Source of the DNA: Gemmatimonadota bacterium
GTDB taxonomy: Bacteria; Gemmatimonadota; Gemmatimonadetes; Gemmatimonadales; GWC2-71-9
Direction: 5' to 3'
DNA: 32,411 nucleotides
Assembly (NCBI GenBank): GCA_003222235.1
Contig: QHVD01000023.1
Coordinates: forward strand, 1-32,411
The notes below the pieces were generated by a model that saw only the letters and a list, made by a program, of their open reading frames with translations, did no database searches and was not told the origin of the DNA. The position numbers and the translations under genes were made by a program. This document shows, one piece after another, positions 1-31,324 of this stretch (its first letter is position 1; the number at the start of each line of letters is the position of its first letter).

Positions 1-2387
1 TCCTCGAGCGCGCGCTCCATGACCTCAGCTTCGGTCGCGCCGCGGGCGACGCTGAGATGCGCCCGAACCTTGCCGTTCACCTGGACGACGACCTCGACCT
101 CGCCCGCAGCGGCGATGCGCTCGTCGAAGCTCGGCCACCGGCCTTCGAAGATCGACCGATCGTGCCCGAGGACGGCCCAGAGCTCCTCCGCGAGATGGGG
201 TGCGTAAGGCGCGAGGATCACGATGAGGGGCTCTACCGCATCCCGCGTCGCGCATCCCGCCTCCCGCAAGGCATTCACATACTCCATCATCGCGGCGATC
301 GCCGTGTTGTAGTCCAGGCTCGCCGTGTCCGCCGTGACCTTCCGGATCGTCTGATGGAGCTTGCGCGCAACGGCCGGCGGCAGCCCCGGGCCCGCTGACC
401 CTGGGGACCCCGGGGACCCCGGGCTTGCGCCCGGGGTTAGGGGGCCCGGGGTCCCTGGGGTCACGGCTGCCTCGTGCGCGAGCTGCCACACCTTGTCGAG
501 GAAGCGCCGGACCCCTGTGATCCCCTCGTCCCGGAAGTCGCCGCCCTCCTGAAACGGACCGAGGAACATGAGGTACATGCGGAACGCGTCGGCGCCCCAT
601 TTCCGGATGTAGGAGTCGGGAATCACCACGTTACCGCGCGACTTCGACATCTTGGCGCCGTCCTTGATGATCAGTCCGTGCGCCCGGAACTTCGGGAACG
701 GCTCTTCGAACCCGACGTGCCCGAGCTCCTCCAGCACCATCGTGATGAAGCGGGAGTACAGCAGGTGGAGCACCGCGTGCTCGTTCCCGCCGATGTAGGA
801 CGTCACGGGGAGCCAGGTCCTGGTCCGCTCGGTGTCCCAGGGCCGATCGTCGAACTCGGTGGACGGATAGCGAAGGAAGTACCACGCCGAGTCGAGGAAC
901 GTGTCCGACACATCGGTTTCCCGCCGCCCCGTGGCACCGCACTGCGGGCACTTCACGAAATACCACTCTTTGTGCCGCGCGAGCGGGCTCACGCCGGAGG
1001 CGTCGGGACGGAAGTCCTCGATGAACGGCAACACGACGGGAAGGTCGTGCTCCGGCACCCCCACCGGACCGCACCGGTCGCAGTAGATGATCGGGATCGG
1101 CGGTCCCCAGTAGCGCTGGCGCGAGATGCACCAGTCGTGAAGGCGGTACTGGACCTGCGGCGTCGCGAGCCCCCGTTCCCGCAGTCAATCCACGATGCGC
1201 CGCTGCGCAGCGCGGCAGGGCAGCCCGTCGAACTGCCCCGAGTTCATCATGGCGCCGTCCTCGGTGACGCTCGGGAGCGGCTCGTCGGCCTGCACGACTC
1301 GGCGCACGGGGAGGTTGAACGCCGCCGCGAACTCGAAGTCGCGCTTGTCGTGGGCCGGCACCGCCATGATGGCGCCCGTGCCGTACTCCATGACCACGTA
1401 GTCGGCGATCCAGATGGGGATCGCTTCCCCGGTCGCTGGATTGCGGGCGTAGGAGCCGAGAAACACCCCGCTCTTGGTCTTCTCGCCCACCTTGCGCGAC
1501 ACGAGGTCCCTCGCCAGCACCTCGCGCCGGTAGGCGTCGACCTCGTGGCGCCGCTCGTCGGCCGTGAGCGAGTCTACGAGGGGGTGCTCGGGCGCGAGCA
1601 CGATGTACGTGGCGCCGAACACGGTGTCCGGGCGGGTGGTGAAGACGGATAGCTTCGCGCCCGCCCCCGGCGTCTCGAACACGAGCTCTGCGCCCTCGCT
1701 CCGGCCGATCCAGTTGCGCTGCAGTGTGCGGGTCGAGTCCGACCAGTCGAGCCAGTCGAGGTTCTCGAGGAGGCGCTCGGCATAGCGGGTGATCGCGAAA
1801 AACCACTGCTCGAGGTAGCGCAGCTCGACCTTGGTGTCGGGGTGGCGCTCGCAGTAGCCGTTGATCACCTGTTCGTTCGCGACCACGCTCATGTCTTTGG
1901 GACACCAGTTGACCGCCCCCCTCTTCCGGAATGCGAGCCCGGCCTTGAAGAGCTGCAGGAAGATCCACTGCGTCCACTTGTAGTAGCGGGGGTCGGTGGT
2001 CGAGAGCTCGTGGCGCCAATCGAACATGCCGCCGACGCGCTTGAGCTGCCGGCGGAACGTCGCGATGTTCTGCGGGATCAGCGTCCCCGGGTTGGTCCCG
2101 ACCGAGAGCGCGTAGTTCTCGGAGTGGATGCCGAACGCGTCGAACCCGATCGGCTCGAACACGTCGTGCCCCTGGAGCCGCTGGAACCGCCCGTAGATGT
2201 CCGCGCCCGTGAACGCAAACATGTTCCCCACGTGCAACCCCTCGGCCGAGGGATAGGGGAACATCATCAGGTTGTAGAACGGCCGCTCGGGGCGGTCGAG
2301 ATCGGGCTCGTTGGTGTGGTTCTGCTCCCAACGCTCTTGCCACTTGGTCTCGACGGCCTCGGGGTCGTAGCTCGGGACCCGGCTCAT
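1..2387 (-). CDS. leuS: Leucine--tRNA ligase; 3' end runs off the window; in-frame TGA at 1185-1187
   Basis: MFPYPSAEGLHVGN (HIGH-like), CP1 editing motifs FTTRPDT and GTGAIMAVPAHD. The same frame continues past the TGA with DWCISRQRYWG, KMSKS and VVVQVNGKVR. Confidence 0.97.
379..471. repeat. Palindromic element built from GACCCCGGG 9-mers, in frame inside leuS
   Basis: Core ACCCCGGGC-TTGC-GCCCGGGGT at 416-437. Arms 396-414 and 445-463 pair at 17/19 positions. Outer GGCAGCC/GGCTGCC. Confidence 0.85.
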
Positions 2388-2409
2388 AACTGCATGAAAC
2401 TAAACAGGC

Positions 2410-2438
2410 TTGCCCCTCCAGGTAACCCTGCGTACCTT
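2410..2438 (+). promoter_or_regulatory. Putative sigma70 promoter of the chemoreceptor gene
   Basis: TTGCCC-N17-TACCTT, 13 nt upstream of ATG 2452. Confidence 0.55.
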
Positions 2439-2451
2439 GCCGACCCGCGTC

Positions 2452-28742: not shown

Positions 28743-28744
28743 CG

Positions 28745-31282
28745 CTACTTCTTTGCCCGGGGCCGGCCCTTCGGCTTCGCCGTGCTCTTGGCGCCACCCG
28801 CCGGTGCGTCGTCCTCGTCTTCCCCGCCCTCGCCGCCGTTCTCTCCCACGTCTTCCTTGACCACCCGCGCGACGCCCACCACCAGGTCGCCCGGCGTGAG
28901 GTTCATGATCTTCACCCCCTGGGTGTTGCGGCCGGAGATGCGGATACCCTCGACCGGCACCCGGATCATGATGCCCTTCTTCGTGATCATCATGAGCTCG
29001 TCGTCGGGGAGAACCTCCTTCAGCGCGATGGCGTCTCCCGTCTTGTCGGTGCGCTTGAGCGTGATGATGCCGCGCCCGCCGCGGTGCTGGACCCGATACT
29101 CGTCGAGCTCCGAGCGCTTGCCCATGCCCGTCTCGGTCAGGGTGAGGAGGGTGGAAGCGCGGCGCACCACCACCATGCCCATTACCTGGTCGCCCTTGTC
29201 CAGCTCGATTCCCTTCACGCCCGTCGCGGTCCTGCCCATGTCCCGCACGTCCTTCTCGTGGAACCGGATGCTCATCCCGTGCCGGGTGGCGAGGACGATG
29301 TCGTTCGAGCCGTCCGTGACCTGCACGTCGATCAGCTCGTCGCCCTTCTCGATGTTGATCGCGCGGATGCCCGCGGAACGCGGGTTGCCGAACTCGGAGA
29401 GCGCGGTCTTCTTCACCACGCCGTGCTTGGTCGCGAAAAACAGGAACTGGTCCTCGGAGAACTCGCGCACCGGGACCAGCGCCGCCACGTGCTCGTCCGG
29501 CTTGATCGCGATGCACCCGATCACGGGCTTGCCGCGCGCCGCCCGCGCCGCCTGCGGGATCTCGTGCACCTTGAGCCAGTAGCACTGGCCGTTCTGGGTG
29601 AAAAACATCATGTAGTCGTGCGTCGAGGCGATGAAGAGGTGCTCGACCCAGTCGTCTTCCTTGGTCTGGGCGGAGATGACGCCCTTGCCGCCGCGGCGCT
29701 GGCGGCGGTAGGCCGAGACGGGGAGGCGCTTGATGTAGCCCGCGTGGGACACGGTGATCACCATGTCCTCTTCGGCAATCAGGTCCTCGATGGAAAACTC
29801 GCCCTGGTCGGCGACGATCTCGGTGCGGCGCTGGTCGCCGAACCCCTCGGCGAGCTCGCTGAGCTCCTCCTTCAGGATCTTCAGGCGCCGCGGCTTCGAG
29901 CCGAGGATCTCCTTGCACTCCTTGATGAACTTGCGGACCTCCTTCAGCTCGTCCTCGAGCTTGGAGATCTCGAGCGCGGTGAGCCGCGCGAGCCGCATGT
30001 TGAGGATCTCCGCCGACTGCTTCTCGGACAGCTCGAAGCGCTTGCGCAGGGCCGCGTCCGCCGTGGGCGTGTCCTTGGACTTGCGGATGACCTTGATCAC
30101 TTCGTCGATGTGGTCGACCGCGATCTTCAGGCCCTCGAGGATGTGCTCGCGGTCCTGGGCGCGCTTCAGCTCGAACTCGGTCCGGCGGGTGATGACGGTG
30201 TGCCGGTGCTCGATGAAGTGCTGCAGCAGCTCCTTCAGGTCCATCTCCTTCGGCACGCCGTCCACGAGCGCCAGCATGATCGCGCCGAAGGTGGTCTGCA
30301 TCTGGGTGTGCTTGTAGAGCTGGTTCAGGACCACGGCGGGCACCGCGTCGCGCTTCAGCTCGATGACGATGCGCATCCCCTCGCGGTCCGACTCGTCGCG
30401 CAGGTCGGAGATCCCCTCGAGCTTCTTGGCGTTGGCGAGCGCGGCGATTTGCGCGACCAGGTTGCTCTTGTTGACCTGATACGGGATCTCGGTCACGACG
30501 ATCTGGTGCTTCCCCGTGGACTCCCGCTCTTCGACCACCGCGCGCCCGCGGATCACGATCCGCCCCCGGCCCTTGTCGTAGCACTCCCGGATGCCGTCGC
30601 GGCCGTAGATGATCCCGCCGGTGGGGAAGTCGGGCCCGCGCACGAACTTCCGGAGGTCCTTCACGGCTGCGTCGGCGTGGTCCACCAGGTGGTTGATCGC
30701 CTGGACCACCTCGCTCAGGTTGTGGGGCGGGATGTTGGTGGCCATTCCCACCGCGATGCCGGCGGCGCCGTTCACCATGAGGTTCGGAAGCTTCGACGGG
30801 AGCACCGTCGGCTCCTGGAGCCGCTCGTCGAAGTTGGCGACGAAGTCCACGGTGTTCTTCTCGATGTCCTCCAGCATCGTCATCGCGACGCGCGTGAGCC
30901 GCGCCTCGGTGTAGCGGTAAGCCGCCGCGGGGTCCCCGTCCACCGACCCGAAGTTCCCCTGCCCGTCCACGAGCGGATAGCGCAGCGAGAAGTCCTGCAC
31001 CATCCGCACCAGCGCGTCGTAGACCGCGATGTCGCCGTGCGGGTGGTATTTGCCCAGCACATCGCCCACGACGGTGGCGCTCTTCTTGTAGGGGCGGCCC
31101 GGCACGAGACCGAGCTCGTGCATCGCGTACAGGATGCGGCGGTGGACGGGTTTGAGACCGTCGCGCGCGTCGGGCAGCGCGCGCTGCACGATGACGCTCA
31201 TCGAGTAGTCGAGGAACGACTCCTTCAGCTCGTCCTCGATGAGACGCGGGAGAATGCGCTCGCGGGCGTTGGGTGCGGTCAT
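28745..31282 (-). CDS. gyrA: DNA gyrase subunit A
   Basis: [24 protein letters not shown] (catalytic Tyr), GyrA-box QRRGGKG, pinwheel repeats, acidic tail. Confidence 0.98.
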
Positions 31283-31289
31283 GGCAGAC

Positions 31290-31324
31290 GGGTGTCGGGT
31301 GTCAGGGGCCGGGTGTCTGGTGAC
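31290..31324. repeat. GGGTGTC heptamer array in the gyrA leader
   Basis: GGGTGTC GGGTGTC AGGGGCC GGGTGTC TGGTGAC. Confidence 0.7.

Follow-up and report, generated by a model that had tools for sequence, protein, structure and literature searches.

Tandem-arm hairpins at gene ends and within proteins of a Gemmatimonadota genome: possible gene-less kin of four-helix-bundle gene cassettes

The window and its tandem arrays

The window, that is the whole stretch of 32,411 nucleotides analysed here, comprises bases 1–32411 of contig C260 in the assembly of a Gemmatimonadota bacterium (3.84 Mb in 603 contigs, 68.6% GC, 86% complete). Its gene set is ordinary and includes leuS, a chemoreceptor gene, genes of the serine and arginine pathways, tetR, genes for a metallophosphoesterase, for peptidases and for a protein of the dienelactone hydrolase family (DLH), and gyrA; no tRNA and no Rfam family was found in the window. 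Within and between these genes lie short tandem arrays, often arranged as two opposed arms which enclose a loop and are able to form a hairpin (Table 1). The evidence tips towards a reading in which these tandem-arm hairpins are small non-autonomous elements, gene-less kin of cassettes that carry a four-helix-bundle gene (Avd-like, TIGR02436), and are exchanged between lineages.

A first-pass annotation of the window had listed ten repeat stretches, all of which are present where it placed them, and had described most of them as opposed, hairpin-forming arrays and most as translated. In a fold test against 200 dinucleotide shuffles per stretch (z-scores in Table 1), six of the ten are strong two-arm hairpins. 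One is weak (7960–8031, equalled by 8 of 200 shuffles), and the other three consist of a single arm. Translation holds for seven of the ten in the window (379, 8519, 18097, 19010, 20595, 21341 and 24181; the arrays at 7960, 17444 and 31290 are non-coding), but not genome-wide, where a crude hexamer gene caller with rough start calls places 152 of 340 strong arrays in coding and 188 in intergenic DNA of a genome called 86% coding. Five strong inverted repeats are found in the window versus none or one in 12 synonymous-codon shuffles. The stretch at 379–471, taken for a 9-mer family, differs from the tandem families in being a palindrome of the repetitive extragenic palindrome (REP) type, as described below. 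The arm at 8519–8550 amounts to about two degenerate units and is not listed by Tandem Repeats Finder, and the pieces covering this region in near-identical contigs of three runs differ by 27 gap letters, most of which are extra bases. The earlier list had missed a 7-mer array at 236–268 in leuS and an inverted-repeat element at 15112–15219.

Table 1. Repeat elements of the window and the genes that house or adjoin them
Feature	Position	Strand	Folding z	Context
leuS (leucyl-tRNA synthetase, LeuRS)	3..2387	-		houses two repeat inserts
7-mer array, GCGGGAT family, single	236..268	-		in frame in second LeuRS loop; relatives carry other 7-mer families here
REP-type nested palindrome	379..471 (core 417-440)	-	-4.0	in frame in LeuRS loop
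CTAG-family 8-mer array	7960..8031	-	-2.0	begins at GNAT stop codon, intergenic, weak hairpin
GNAT acetyltransferase gene	8029..8568	-		GTG start overlaps stop of upstream gene
Degenerate single arm	8519..8550	-	+1.0	GNAT N-terminus, no hairpin
108-bp MITE-like element (MITE, miniature transposable element with inverted repeats), 28-bp terminal inverted repeats	15112..15219	.		unrelated to tandem arrays
7-mer hairpin, two-arm (GGTGTTA/GGTGCTG)	17444..17504	.	-7.1	untranslated, between Omp85-domain gene and tetR
TetR-family regulator gene	17510..18130	+		final residues and stop inside 18097 hairpin
8-mer hairpin, two-arm (GGCGGWCN)	18097..18171	.	-6.1	forms overlapping C-termini and stops of tetR (+) and metallophosphoesterase (-)
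Membrane metallophosphoesterase gene	18100..19472	-		broken into two frames at linker hairpin, in window assembly only
8-mer hairpin, two-arm	19010..19085	-	-7.7	codes metallophosphoesterase linker between membrane and catalytic domains
10-mer hairpin, two-arm (GRCGGTAGAR)	20595..20672	.	-6.8	forms convergent C-termini of S41 peptidase (+) and DLH (-)
Dienelactone-hydrolase-family gene (DLH)	20651..21457	-		start overlaps stop of upstream gene
8-mer hairpin, two-arm	21341..21447	-	-4.9	predicted DLH signal peptide; begins at upstream dehydrogenase stop codon
Glucose/sorbosone dehydrogenase-like gene	21447..22562	-		its stop codon is the left edge of the DLH cassette
10-mer single arm	24181..24210	-	+0.6	straddles E1 dehydrogenase stop; codes n-region of predicted M1 peptidase signal peptide
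7-mer single arm	31290..31324	-	-1.4	untranslated, immediately 5' of gyrA start

Enrichment, polarity and dispersal

Comparison with codon-preserving shuffles, which had been proposed as a check, places the arrays of the genome far above expectation. Relative to one synonymous-codon and one codon-order shuffle, period-7 arrays number 365 versus 29 and 21, period-8 arrays 135 versus 15 and 12, and period-10 arrays 78 versus 17 and 11, whereas period-9 arrays are much less enriched (236 versus 148 and 64). Chance or GC bias as the source of the arrays is ruled out by these controls. An inverted partner lies within 150 nt of 222 of the 340 strong arrays, as against 2 of 340 in the control. The purine-rich arm is situated 5' in 214 of these 222 pairs. 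The proposal that different unit families share one architecture, consisting of purine arm, loop and pyrimidine arm, is borne out by these pairs.

The hairpins are dispersed as whole units, since five out of seven inspected pairs of similar loops represent complete arm-loop-arm units with unrelated flanks; the other two lie in duplicated regions. Hairpins starting between positions -40 and +20 of a stop codon account for 104 of 175 (random mean 9, maximum 16), and in roomy spacers 13 of 27 are found within 12 nt of a stop versus 5.8 expected. Positions right behind stop codons and tolerant parts of proteins are the preferred places of the hairpins. The DLH cassette, too, begins at the stop codon of the upstream gene, although that stop lies within the DLH reading frame. 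Around 175 hairpins, direct repeats of 2 to 8 nt outside the arms, which would indicate a target-site duplication, are no commoner than in shuffled pairings, although a palindromic duplication could hide inside the arms. Two further candidate signals were discarded. Of 864 departures from the unit consensus, 370 have a mirror image in the opposite arm, a value that was not used because the arms had been defined by alignment. The idea that the loop is kept while the arms change was rejected, with loop identity at swapped sites equal to background (none of three above the 95th percentile of the control); loop identity is also low at 15 of 23 same-family sites.

Several separate observations concern the repeats of the genome. 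CTAG-family arrays fill the spacers flanking a tRNA-like gene in what by eye appears to be a tRNA cluster (G000 C262:5286-5520). Loops of the TGCGGAA family share, genome-wide, an inner GTCG...TCGA pattern and are themselves quasi-palindromic. Also abundant are a GTAG-type palindrome, whose 14-mers are found in about 45 copies, and the families CCTCACCCCCTG and CCCTGAAGGG, the latter of which takes the place of tandem arrays at some orthologous sites.

Differing cassettes at orthologous sites

Genome G001 belongs to the same genus and is 90–92% identical in the region of the window. It carries a different family at 7960 (another 8-mer), 19010, 20595 (a 13-mer), 21341 and 31290, and the same family at 17444, 18097 and 24181, where the single arm is conserved. 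On a broader scale, 56 orthologous sites of the window genome were classified in G001 as 40 same, 3 near, 6 different and 7 none, and the reciprocal comparison of 67 sites gave 39, 1, 11 and 16, respectively; both refer to 494 kb of about 3.3 Mb, picked partly for containing arrays. Among the cases inspected, one 'different' call resulted from a mistaken period. Several of the 'none' calls turned out to hide a swap to a REP-type or degenerate repeat, and a few represented cleanly empty sites. Among other relatives, G004 has another 7-mer family behind the Omp85 stop at the 17444 site and G033 has none, and the 18097–18171 site is empty in G033. An array 5' of gyrA is present in all six genomes seen, drawn from four unit families. 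The comparison of orthologs, likewise suggested beforehand, thus found that the arrays are not fixed and that relatives carry other families or empty sites.

For the DLH hairpin, 101 out of 109 loci given (the window, 80 metagenome and 28 genome loci; 52 distant genome loci were omitted) were parsed. Read in frame, the purine arm corresponds to the n-region, the loop to the hydrophobic core and the pyrimidine arm to the c-region of a predicted signal peptide, from which it is inferred that the hairpin encodes the signal peptide of the hydrolase. Such a hairpin is found in 78 of 96 distinct DLH orthologs, and at a threshold of 75% identity 94 loci carry 48 cassette types. An in-frame hydrophobic core of 10 residues is present in 45 of the 48 types, in contrast to none to two of 48 in any other frame.

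Cassettes and enzyme cores are discordant. Among 24 pairs with cores at least 97% identical, 17 share the cassette type and seven carry unrelated cassettes, and mismatches in the 60 nt after the cassette amount to 9–15% in the seven swapped pairs versus 0–2% in the 17 others. Loci L270 and L277 possess unrelated cassettes between flanks that are 99% identical on both sides. Conversely, L286 and L289 share a 98% identical cassette although their cores are 81.5% identical and the cassette edges have only 4 and 5 identical bases. A close neighbour is available for 49 loci, and at 22 of these the cassette type is not that of the neighbour. The period label changes 31 times on the DLH tree versus a shuffled mean of 38 and minimum of 32, a scatter near random (the labels of G001, G004 and G033 were assigned by hand). 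A GGCGG/GACGG core is common to most families at this site.

A second coding site, the metallophosphoesterase linker, carries a hairpin in 49 of 61 distinct orthologs, from several 7- and 8-mer families, and 59 of the 61 are in frame. At coding hairpins, selection keeps the frame and the hydrophobicity of the encoded peptide while the sequence itself changes, which agrees with the earlier suggestion that the arrays continually supply new peptide sequence.

Association with four-helix-bundle genes

The first-pass annotation had proposed a search for four-helix-bundle genes flanked by array families, and such genes were found, both in this genome and in relatives. The genome holds six TIGR02436 genes, none of them in the window, and three of the six are adjoined by both tandem arms. 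Two of these use families known from the window: the arms of the gene on C209 belong to the 10-mer family of 20595–20672, those of the gene on C553 to the CTAG family of 7960–8031. Of the remaining three, one is truncated and has an upstream arm, one lies at a contig end and one is without tandem arms. The flanks of all six read, by eye, as protein-coding or intergenic DNA. Among ten arrays with a distant partner, four-helix genes are the sole clear cargo between the arms; no GxxExxY gene, considered as possible cargo, was found in this genome.

In relatives, cognate inverted flanks occur at 27 of the 29 best-scoring four-helix loci (41 of 812 in a non-cognate control). The four-helix family is present in 50 of 61 genomes, this genome counted. 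Within the taxonomic family, at least ten hits to either of two array patterns were obtained in 16 of 28 genomes with a four-helix gene and in none of nine without (Fisher p 0.005), a comparison which probes two array families and in which kin genomes are not independent. In 720 kb sampled from 15 relatives, eight arrays were seen in 400 kb from genomes with four-helix genes and one in 320 kb from genomes without, too few to weigh.

The gene-less hairpins were also compared directly with the cassettes. In the commonest 7-mer family, TGCGGAA, the one family tested, 13 of 48 loops of gene-less hairpins resemble the inner ends of four-helix cassettes (ribosome-binding site, start and last codons), a resemblance shown by 2 of 40 other loops and by 30 of 960 shuffles. 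This likeness lends modest support to an origin of gene-less hairpins by internal deletion of four-helix cassettes.

The four-helix protein of the genome matches PDB entry 2GSC (E 6.8e-12), whereas its match to the Avd model is weak (24.3 bits versus a cut-off of 80). Avd is homologous to PF05635 (PMC10053308), and the four-helix-bundle family is described as being without known function (PMC4990558). Two observations on individual genes may be added. At G000 C17:6575-7114 the four-helix gene continues in frame into the next gene, by eye RNA-binding and heat-shock-like, which represents either a fusion or a misassembly. In cassettes of G001 and G004 the stem appears to reach over the ribosome-binding site of the four-helix gene.

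Other repeat classes in the window

It had been supposed that a single system accounts for all repeats of the window. This was rejected, since three element classes are seen: the REP-type insert in LeuRS, the element at 15112–15219 and the tandem-arm hairpins. The core of the LeuRS insert follows a 24-nt pattern with 34 exact copies in the genome and CTRA at the 5' end (control 0), and its terminal tag is neither GTAG nor CGTC. The palindrome was found in 10 of 61 genomes, seven of which possess a homologue of the HUH transposase, and it flanks on both sides the only Y1 HUH gene of this genome (on C497) as well as its three closest homologues. The C497 protein scores 62.4 bits with the IS200/IS605 model (cut-off 55) and 35.9 bits with the RAYT model NF047646 (cut-off 80). 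Within the taxonomic family, some members have the insert peptide and others lack it; G001 has a shorter version. Most likely, the LeuRS insert is a separate REP-type repeat that is spread by the HUH transposase it flanks and competes for the same tolerant sites. It resembles intragenic REPs (PMC3733652), although its linked enzyme scores as IS200-like and not as RAYT. In another family of the order (L013, L015, L022, L024) unrelated 8-mer tandem repeats, not REPs, occupy the same LeuRS loop.

The element at 15112–15219 is also present in G001, and the site is empty in G004, G012 and G033. On the plus strand of the genome 13 left ends were detected, seven of which close at 108–109 bp.

Host genes and assembly state

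The best DLH relatives carry Gemmatimonadales titles, and near-identical DNA is present in soil metagenomes from 16 studies. Among the pieces listed of the near-identical contigs compared with the window, none spans the hairpin at 21341. Several irregularities of the window are probably assembly errors and not damage caused by repeats. The metallophosphoesterase linker is out of frame, and a near-identical contig has 4 more bases in this region, the addition of which would restore the commonest linker length among orthologs. In addition, 25 bases at the argC start (11449–11450) and 52 bases of the S41 peptidase gene (19608–19609) are missing from the window, while they are present in G001 and apparently in near-identical contigs. 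A further probable assembly error is an in-frame TGA in leuS (1185–1187), a position occupied by Trp in the two relatives read (L014, L023).

Gene content around the arrays differs in two places. A zinc-dehydrogenase-like gene is located at 31350–31428 in G004, G033 and probably G012, and a gene of 1.2 kb separates the Omp85-domain gene from tetR (17437–17510) in G004 and G033; the window and G001 are without either. Upstream of gyrA (31324–31345), a conserved palindrome, CTAAGT and ACTTAG separated by about 14 bases, is a candidate regulator site. Of six genomes, four have both halves and two have the right half.

Discussion

The enrichment, the polarity, the arms shared with four-helix cassettes, the whole-unit dispersal, the stop-proximal position, the cassette discordance and the selection on the encoded peptides are shown by the data. 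Beyond these, a course of three steps is proposed. Insertion would first colonise the sites. Lineages would then exchange the cassettes as alleles, through replacement of short tracts for which 20–60 conserved bases on each side serve as anchors. Finally, in the weakest and most speculative step, the four-helix protein might bind the arms cognate to it, in the form of RNA or single-stranded DNA, and hand them, in a homing-like manner, to a recombination or repair activity of the host. Taken to its full extent this would define a new class of homing element, in which an Avd-like four-helix pentamer that recognises tandem-repeat hairpins, aided by a host enzyme and not by a transposase or reverse transcriptase of its own, replaces a stop-marked hairpin with another cassette on the basis of tens of bases of homology and between species 20% apart; this extension is tentative.

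A number of findings weigh against kinship with four-helix cassettes and against exchange. The likeness between loops and cassettes is modest and concerns one family. Array load does not follow the number of four-helix genes: three genomes with 6–13 such genes showed no arrays in 40–60 kb sampled, two of them showing arrays by whole-genome pattern, and G023 combines 226 array-pattern hits with one four-helix gene. A profile built for this purpose detected no four-helix gene at the window sites in 160 DLH and 80 other loci. No catalytic activity is known for the four-helix protein, and a partner enzyme was not found. The contrast in flanking mismatches is weaker among cores 93–97% identical, the proximity to stop codons is partly explained by short spacers and constraint, and all sequences compared are metagenome assemblies, with several small defects in that of the window.

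Among the alternatives, host processes might suffice, namely slippage, ectopic gene conversion between similar arms and homologous exchange between strains, with the four-helix gene as a passenger in the loop. The GGCGG/GACGG core common to most DLH-site families would favour conversion guided by the arms; copy number varies inside one family at one site, the additional mismatches in the 60 nt behind swapped cassettes fit ordinary recombination, and a dedicated enzyme was not found. However, unrelated families also swap, and cassettes 97–98% identical are shared between genes 79–81% identical with identical runs of only 4–22 nt upstream and 5 nt downstream. Such short runs are hard for ordinary recombination. 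Moreover, host processes leave unexplained the purine-first polarity across families, and the absence of array-rich genomes among the nine without a four-helix gene (for the two patterns probed) speaks against them as well. An explanation by host processes throughout appears rather unlikely.

An HUH transposase (RAYT- or IS200-like) could instead cut and paste all hairpins in trans, in the manner of REPs. Enzymes of this kind act on single-stranded hairpins (PMC6006769) and the lack of a target duplication would be expected of them; the genome has an HUH gene, and REP and tandem families substitute for each other at the same sites. An HUH gene flanked by tandem arrays, as envisaged in the first-pass annotation, was looked for, but the HUH gene of the genome and its close homologues are flanked by the REP palindrome instead. 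No paired tandem arms surround 16 HUH homologues in relatives, two of which have a one-sided tandem run. A query of the C497 type found no match in the array-rich genomes G004, G016, G021 and G023, in which other HUH proteins were not searched, and the tandem arms have no terminal tetranucleotide in common. For the tandem families, mobilisation by HUH in trans has no positive support and is regarded as improbable.

Signals in RNA structure had also been considered beforehand. In this view the host would retain the hairpins for a role in the mRNA, as terminators, as RNase III sites or in translation coupling, with the sequence free to vary as long as the fold stays. The hairpins do sit after stop codons, they are retained in most DLH and linker orthologs (78 of 96 and 49 of 61), and RNase III cleaves a related intervening sequence of rRNA (PMC4990558). 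On the transcribed strand, however, G-U mismatches show no excess over A-C (91 versus 80), and U-tails (at least five T in the next 9 nt) follow only 18 of 350 arm ends, which is not the pattern of intrinsic terminators. Close relatives have clean empty sites and the movement of whole cassettes would be unexplained; this possibility is very doubtful.

The two weakest alternatives can be dealt with briefly. A telomerase-like or DGR-like reverse transcriptase (DGR, diversity-generating retroelement) that adds purine-rich repeats to the two ends of a break, the arms being made anew at each site, would account for the fixed polarity by end-addition and joining and for a four-helix protein homologous, if weakly, to Avd (PMC10053308), but such a repeat-adding enzyme, which the first-pass annotation had suggested, is most improbable and largely refuted as far as Pfam-detectable enzymes are concerned, since whole units recur with loops moving together with their arms, only 9 of 81 hairpins have a mirror copy of the host stop codon on their far side, and RVT_1, although detected in 9 of 61 genomes including the array-rich G001 and G004, was not found in this genome (86% complete) or in the seven array-rich relatives G008, G016, G020, G021, G023, G028 and G033 (92–100% complete). 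Equally remote is the notion that the swaps arose when mixed soil strains were assembled into chimeras, for although repeats break and confuse assemblers, the data are metagenome assemblies throughout and the window is without short stretches found in G001 and near-identical contigs, a chimera needs long identical words at both junctions where cassette-sharing pairs have 4–22 and 3–5 identical bases, so that chimeric assembly cannot yield these short-junction pairs and may at most inflate the closest (97–99%) ones, and neither the frame kept in 59 of 61 linkers nor the recurrence of the same types in independent assemblies would be expected from it.

Comparison with known systems

Short tandem heptamer arrays dispersed in and between genes are known from cyanobacteria as short tandemly repeated repetitive sequences. 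Neither exchange as cassettes nor use as signal peptides is known for them. Calothrix heptanucleotides are mentioned in a study of Xanthomonas and Nostoc (Rehm et al. 2015, PMC4692102), in which G-rich 7-mers are reported in arrays of about four units; often two such arrays converge and are able to pair, in 70–75 cases per genome. Convergent heptamer arrays near stop and start codons are common to that system and the present one. In contrast, Xanthomonas and Nostoc have one family per genome, under-represented in coding DNA, whereas many 7-, 8-, 10- and 13-mer families are found here, often coding and swapped; the arrays are interpreted there as G-quadruplexes, with no mobiliser named in the accessible text. 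A further case is Geobacter metallireducens (Aklujkar et al. 2009, PMC2700814), with four to five tandem 7- or 8-mers in opposite-strand pairs of variable spacing, in and between genes and from several families. These sites were read as regulator binding sites or regulatory RNAs, and the portions of the report available mention neither a four-helix link nor exchange. The tandem arms described here, with three to five tandem 7- to 8-mers, dispersed and often convergent near gene ends, fall into the same group of paired heptamer/octamer repeats. Since such arrays, including intragenic ones, are already in print (PMC4692102, PMC2700814), the term undescribed, used in the first-pass annotation, is too strong for the arrays themselves. 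A literature search, with most subscription journals outside its scope, revealed no paper joining four-helix genes to tandem arms or describing exchange of signal-peptide cassettes.

With respect to the enclosed gene, the cassettes resemble 23S rRNA intervening sequences bearing an open reading frame (S23p/PF05635/TIGR02436; PMC4990558), in which a four-helix gene is likewise enclosed in a long stem; these are sporadic, horizontally acquired and of unexplained mobility. A TIGR02436/PF05635 gene within a stem is found elsewhere in this genome and in relatives, not in the window. Unlike the intervening sequences, the cassettes lie outside rRNA, their arms are tandem arrays and most copies are gene-less. 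REP/REPIN-RAYT systems and Rickettsia palindromic elements (PMC3733652, PMC6006769) are similar as small dispersed hairpins at gene ends and in frame in proteins, but the tandem-arm families flank four-helix genes and not HUH genes. Like MITEs, the tandem-arm hairpins are short, lack a transposase, have terminal inverted repeats and occur as whole-unit copies at unrelated sites; in contrast to MITEs they show no target-site duplication, and their ends are shared with four-helix cassettes instead of a transposase element. DGRs offer a parallel in the homology of Avd to PF05635 and in retrohoming that replaces a short fixed stretch (PMC10053308). Here, however, no reverse transcriptase and no pair of template and variable repeats was found, and unrelated cassettes replace each other in place of adenine mutagenesis.

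Over-representation of heptamer repeats has been noted for years with little follow-up (PMC4692102), and the present data join these repeats and the four-helix family in one genome. Even without homing, an export signal that repeat DNA has re-created dozens of times represents new protein sequence derived from selfish repeats, and the DLH signal peptide offers a site at which exchange of cassettes is open to counting and to reconstruction in the laboratory. Should a four-helix protein drive precise replacement by short homology, this would constitute an unrecognised route of gene transfer and possibly a principle for editing. The homing interpretation, if true, would account at once for the heptamer repeats dispersed in bacteria, for how rRNA intervening sequences with an open reading frame move, and for a permanent stock of signal peptides and linkers that can replace one another.

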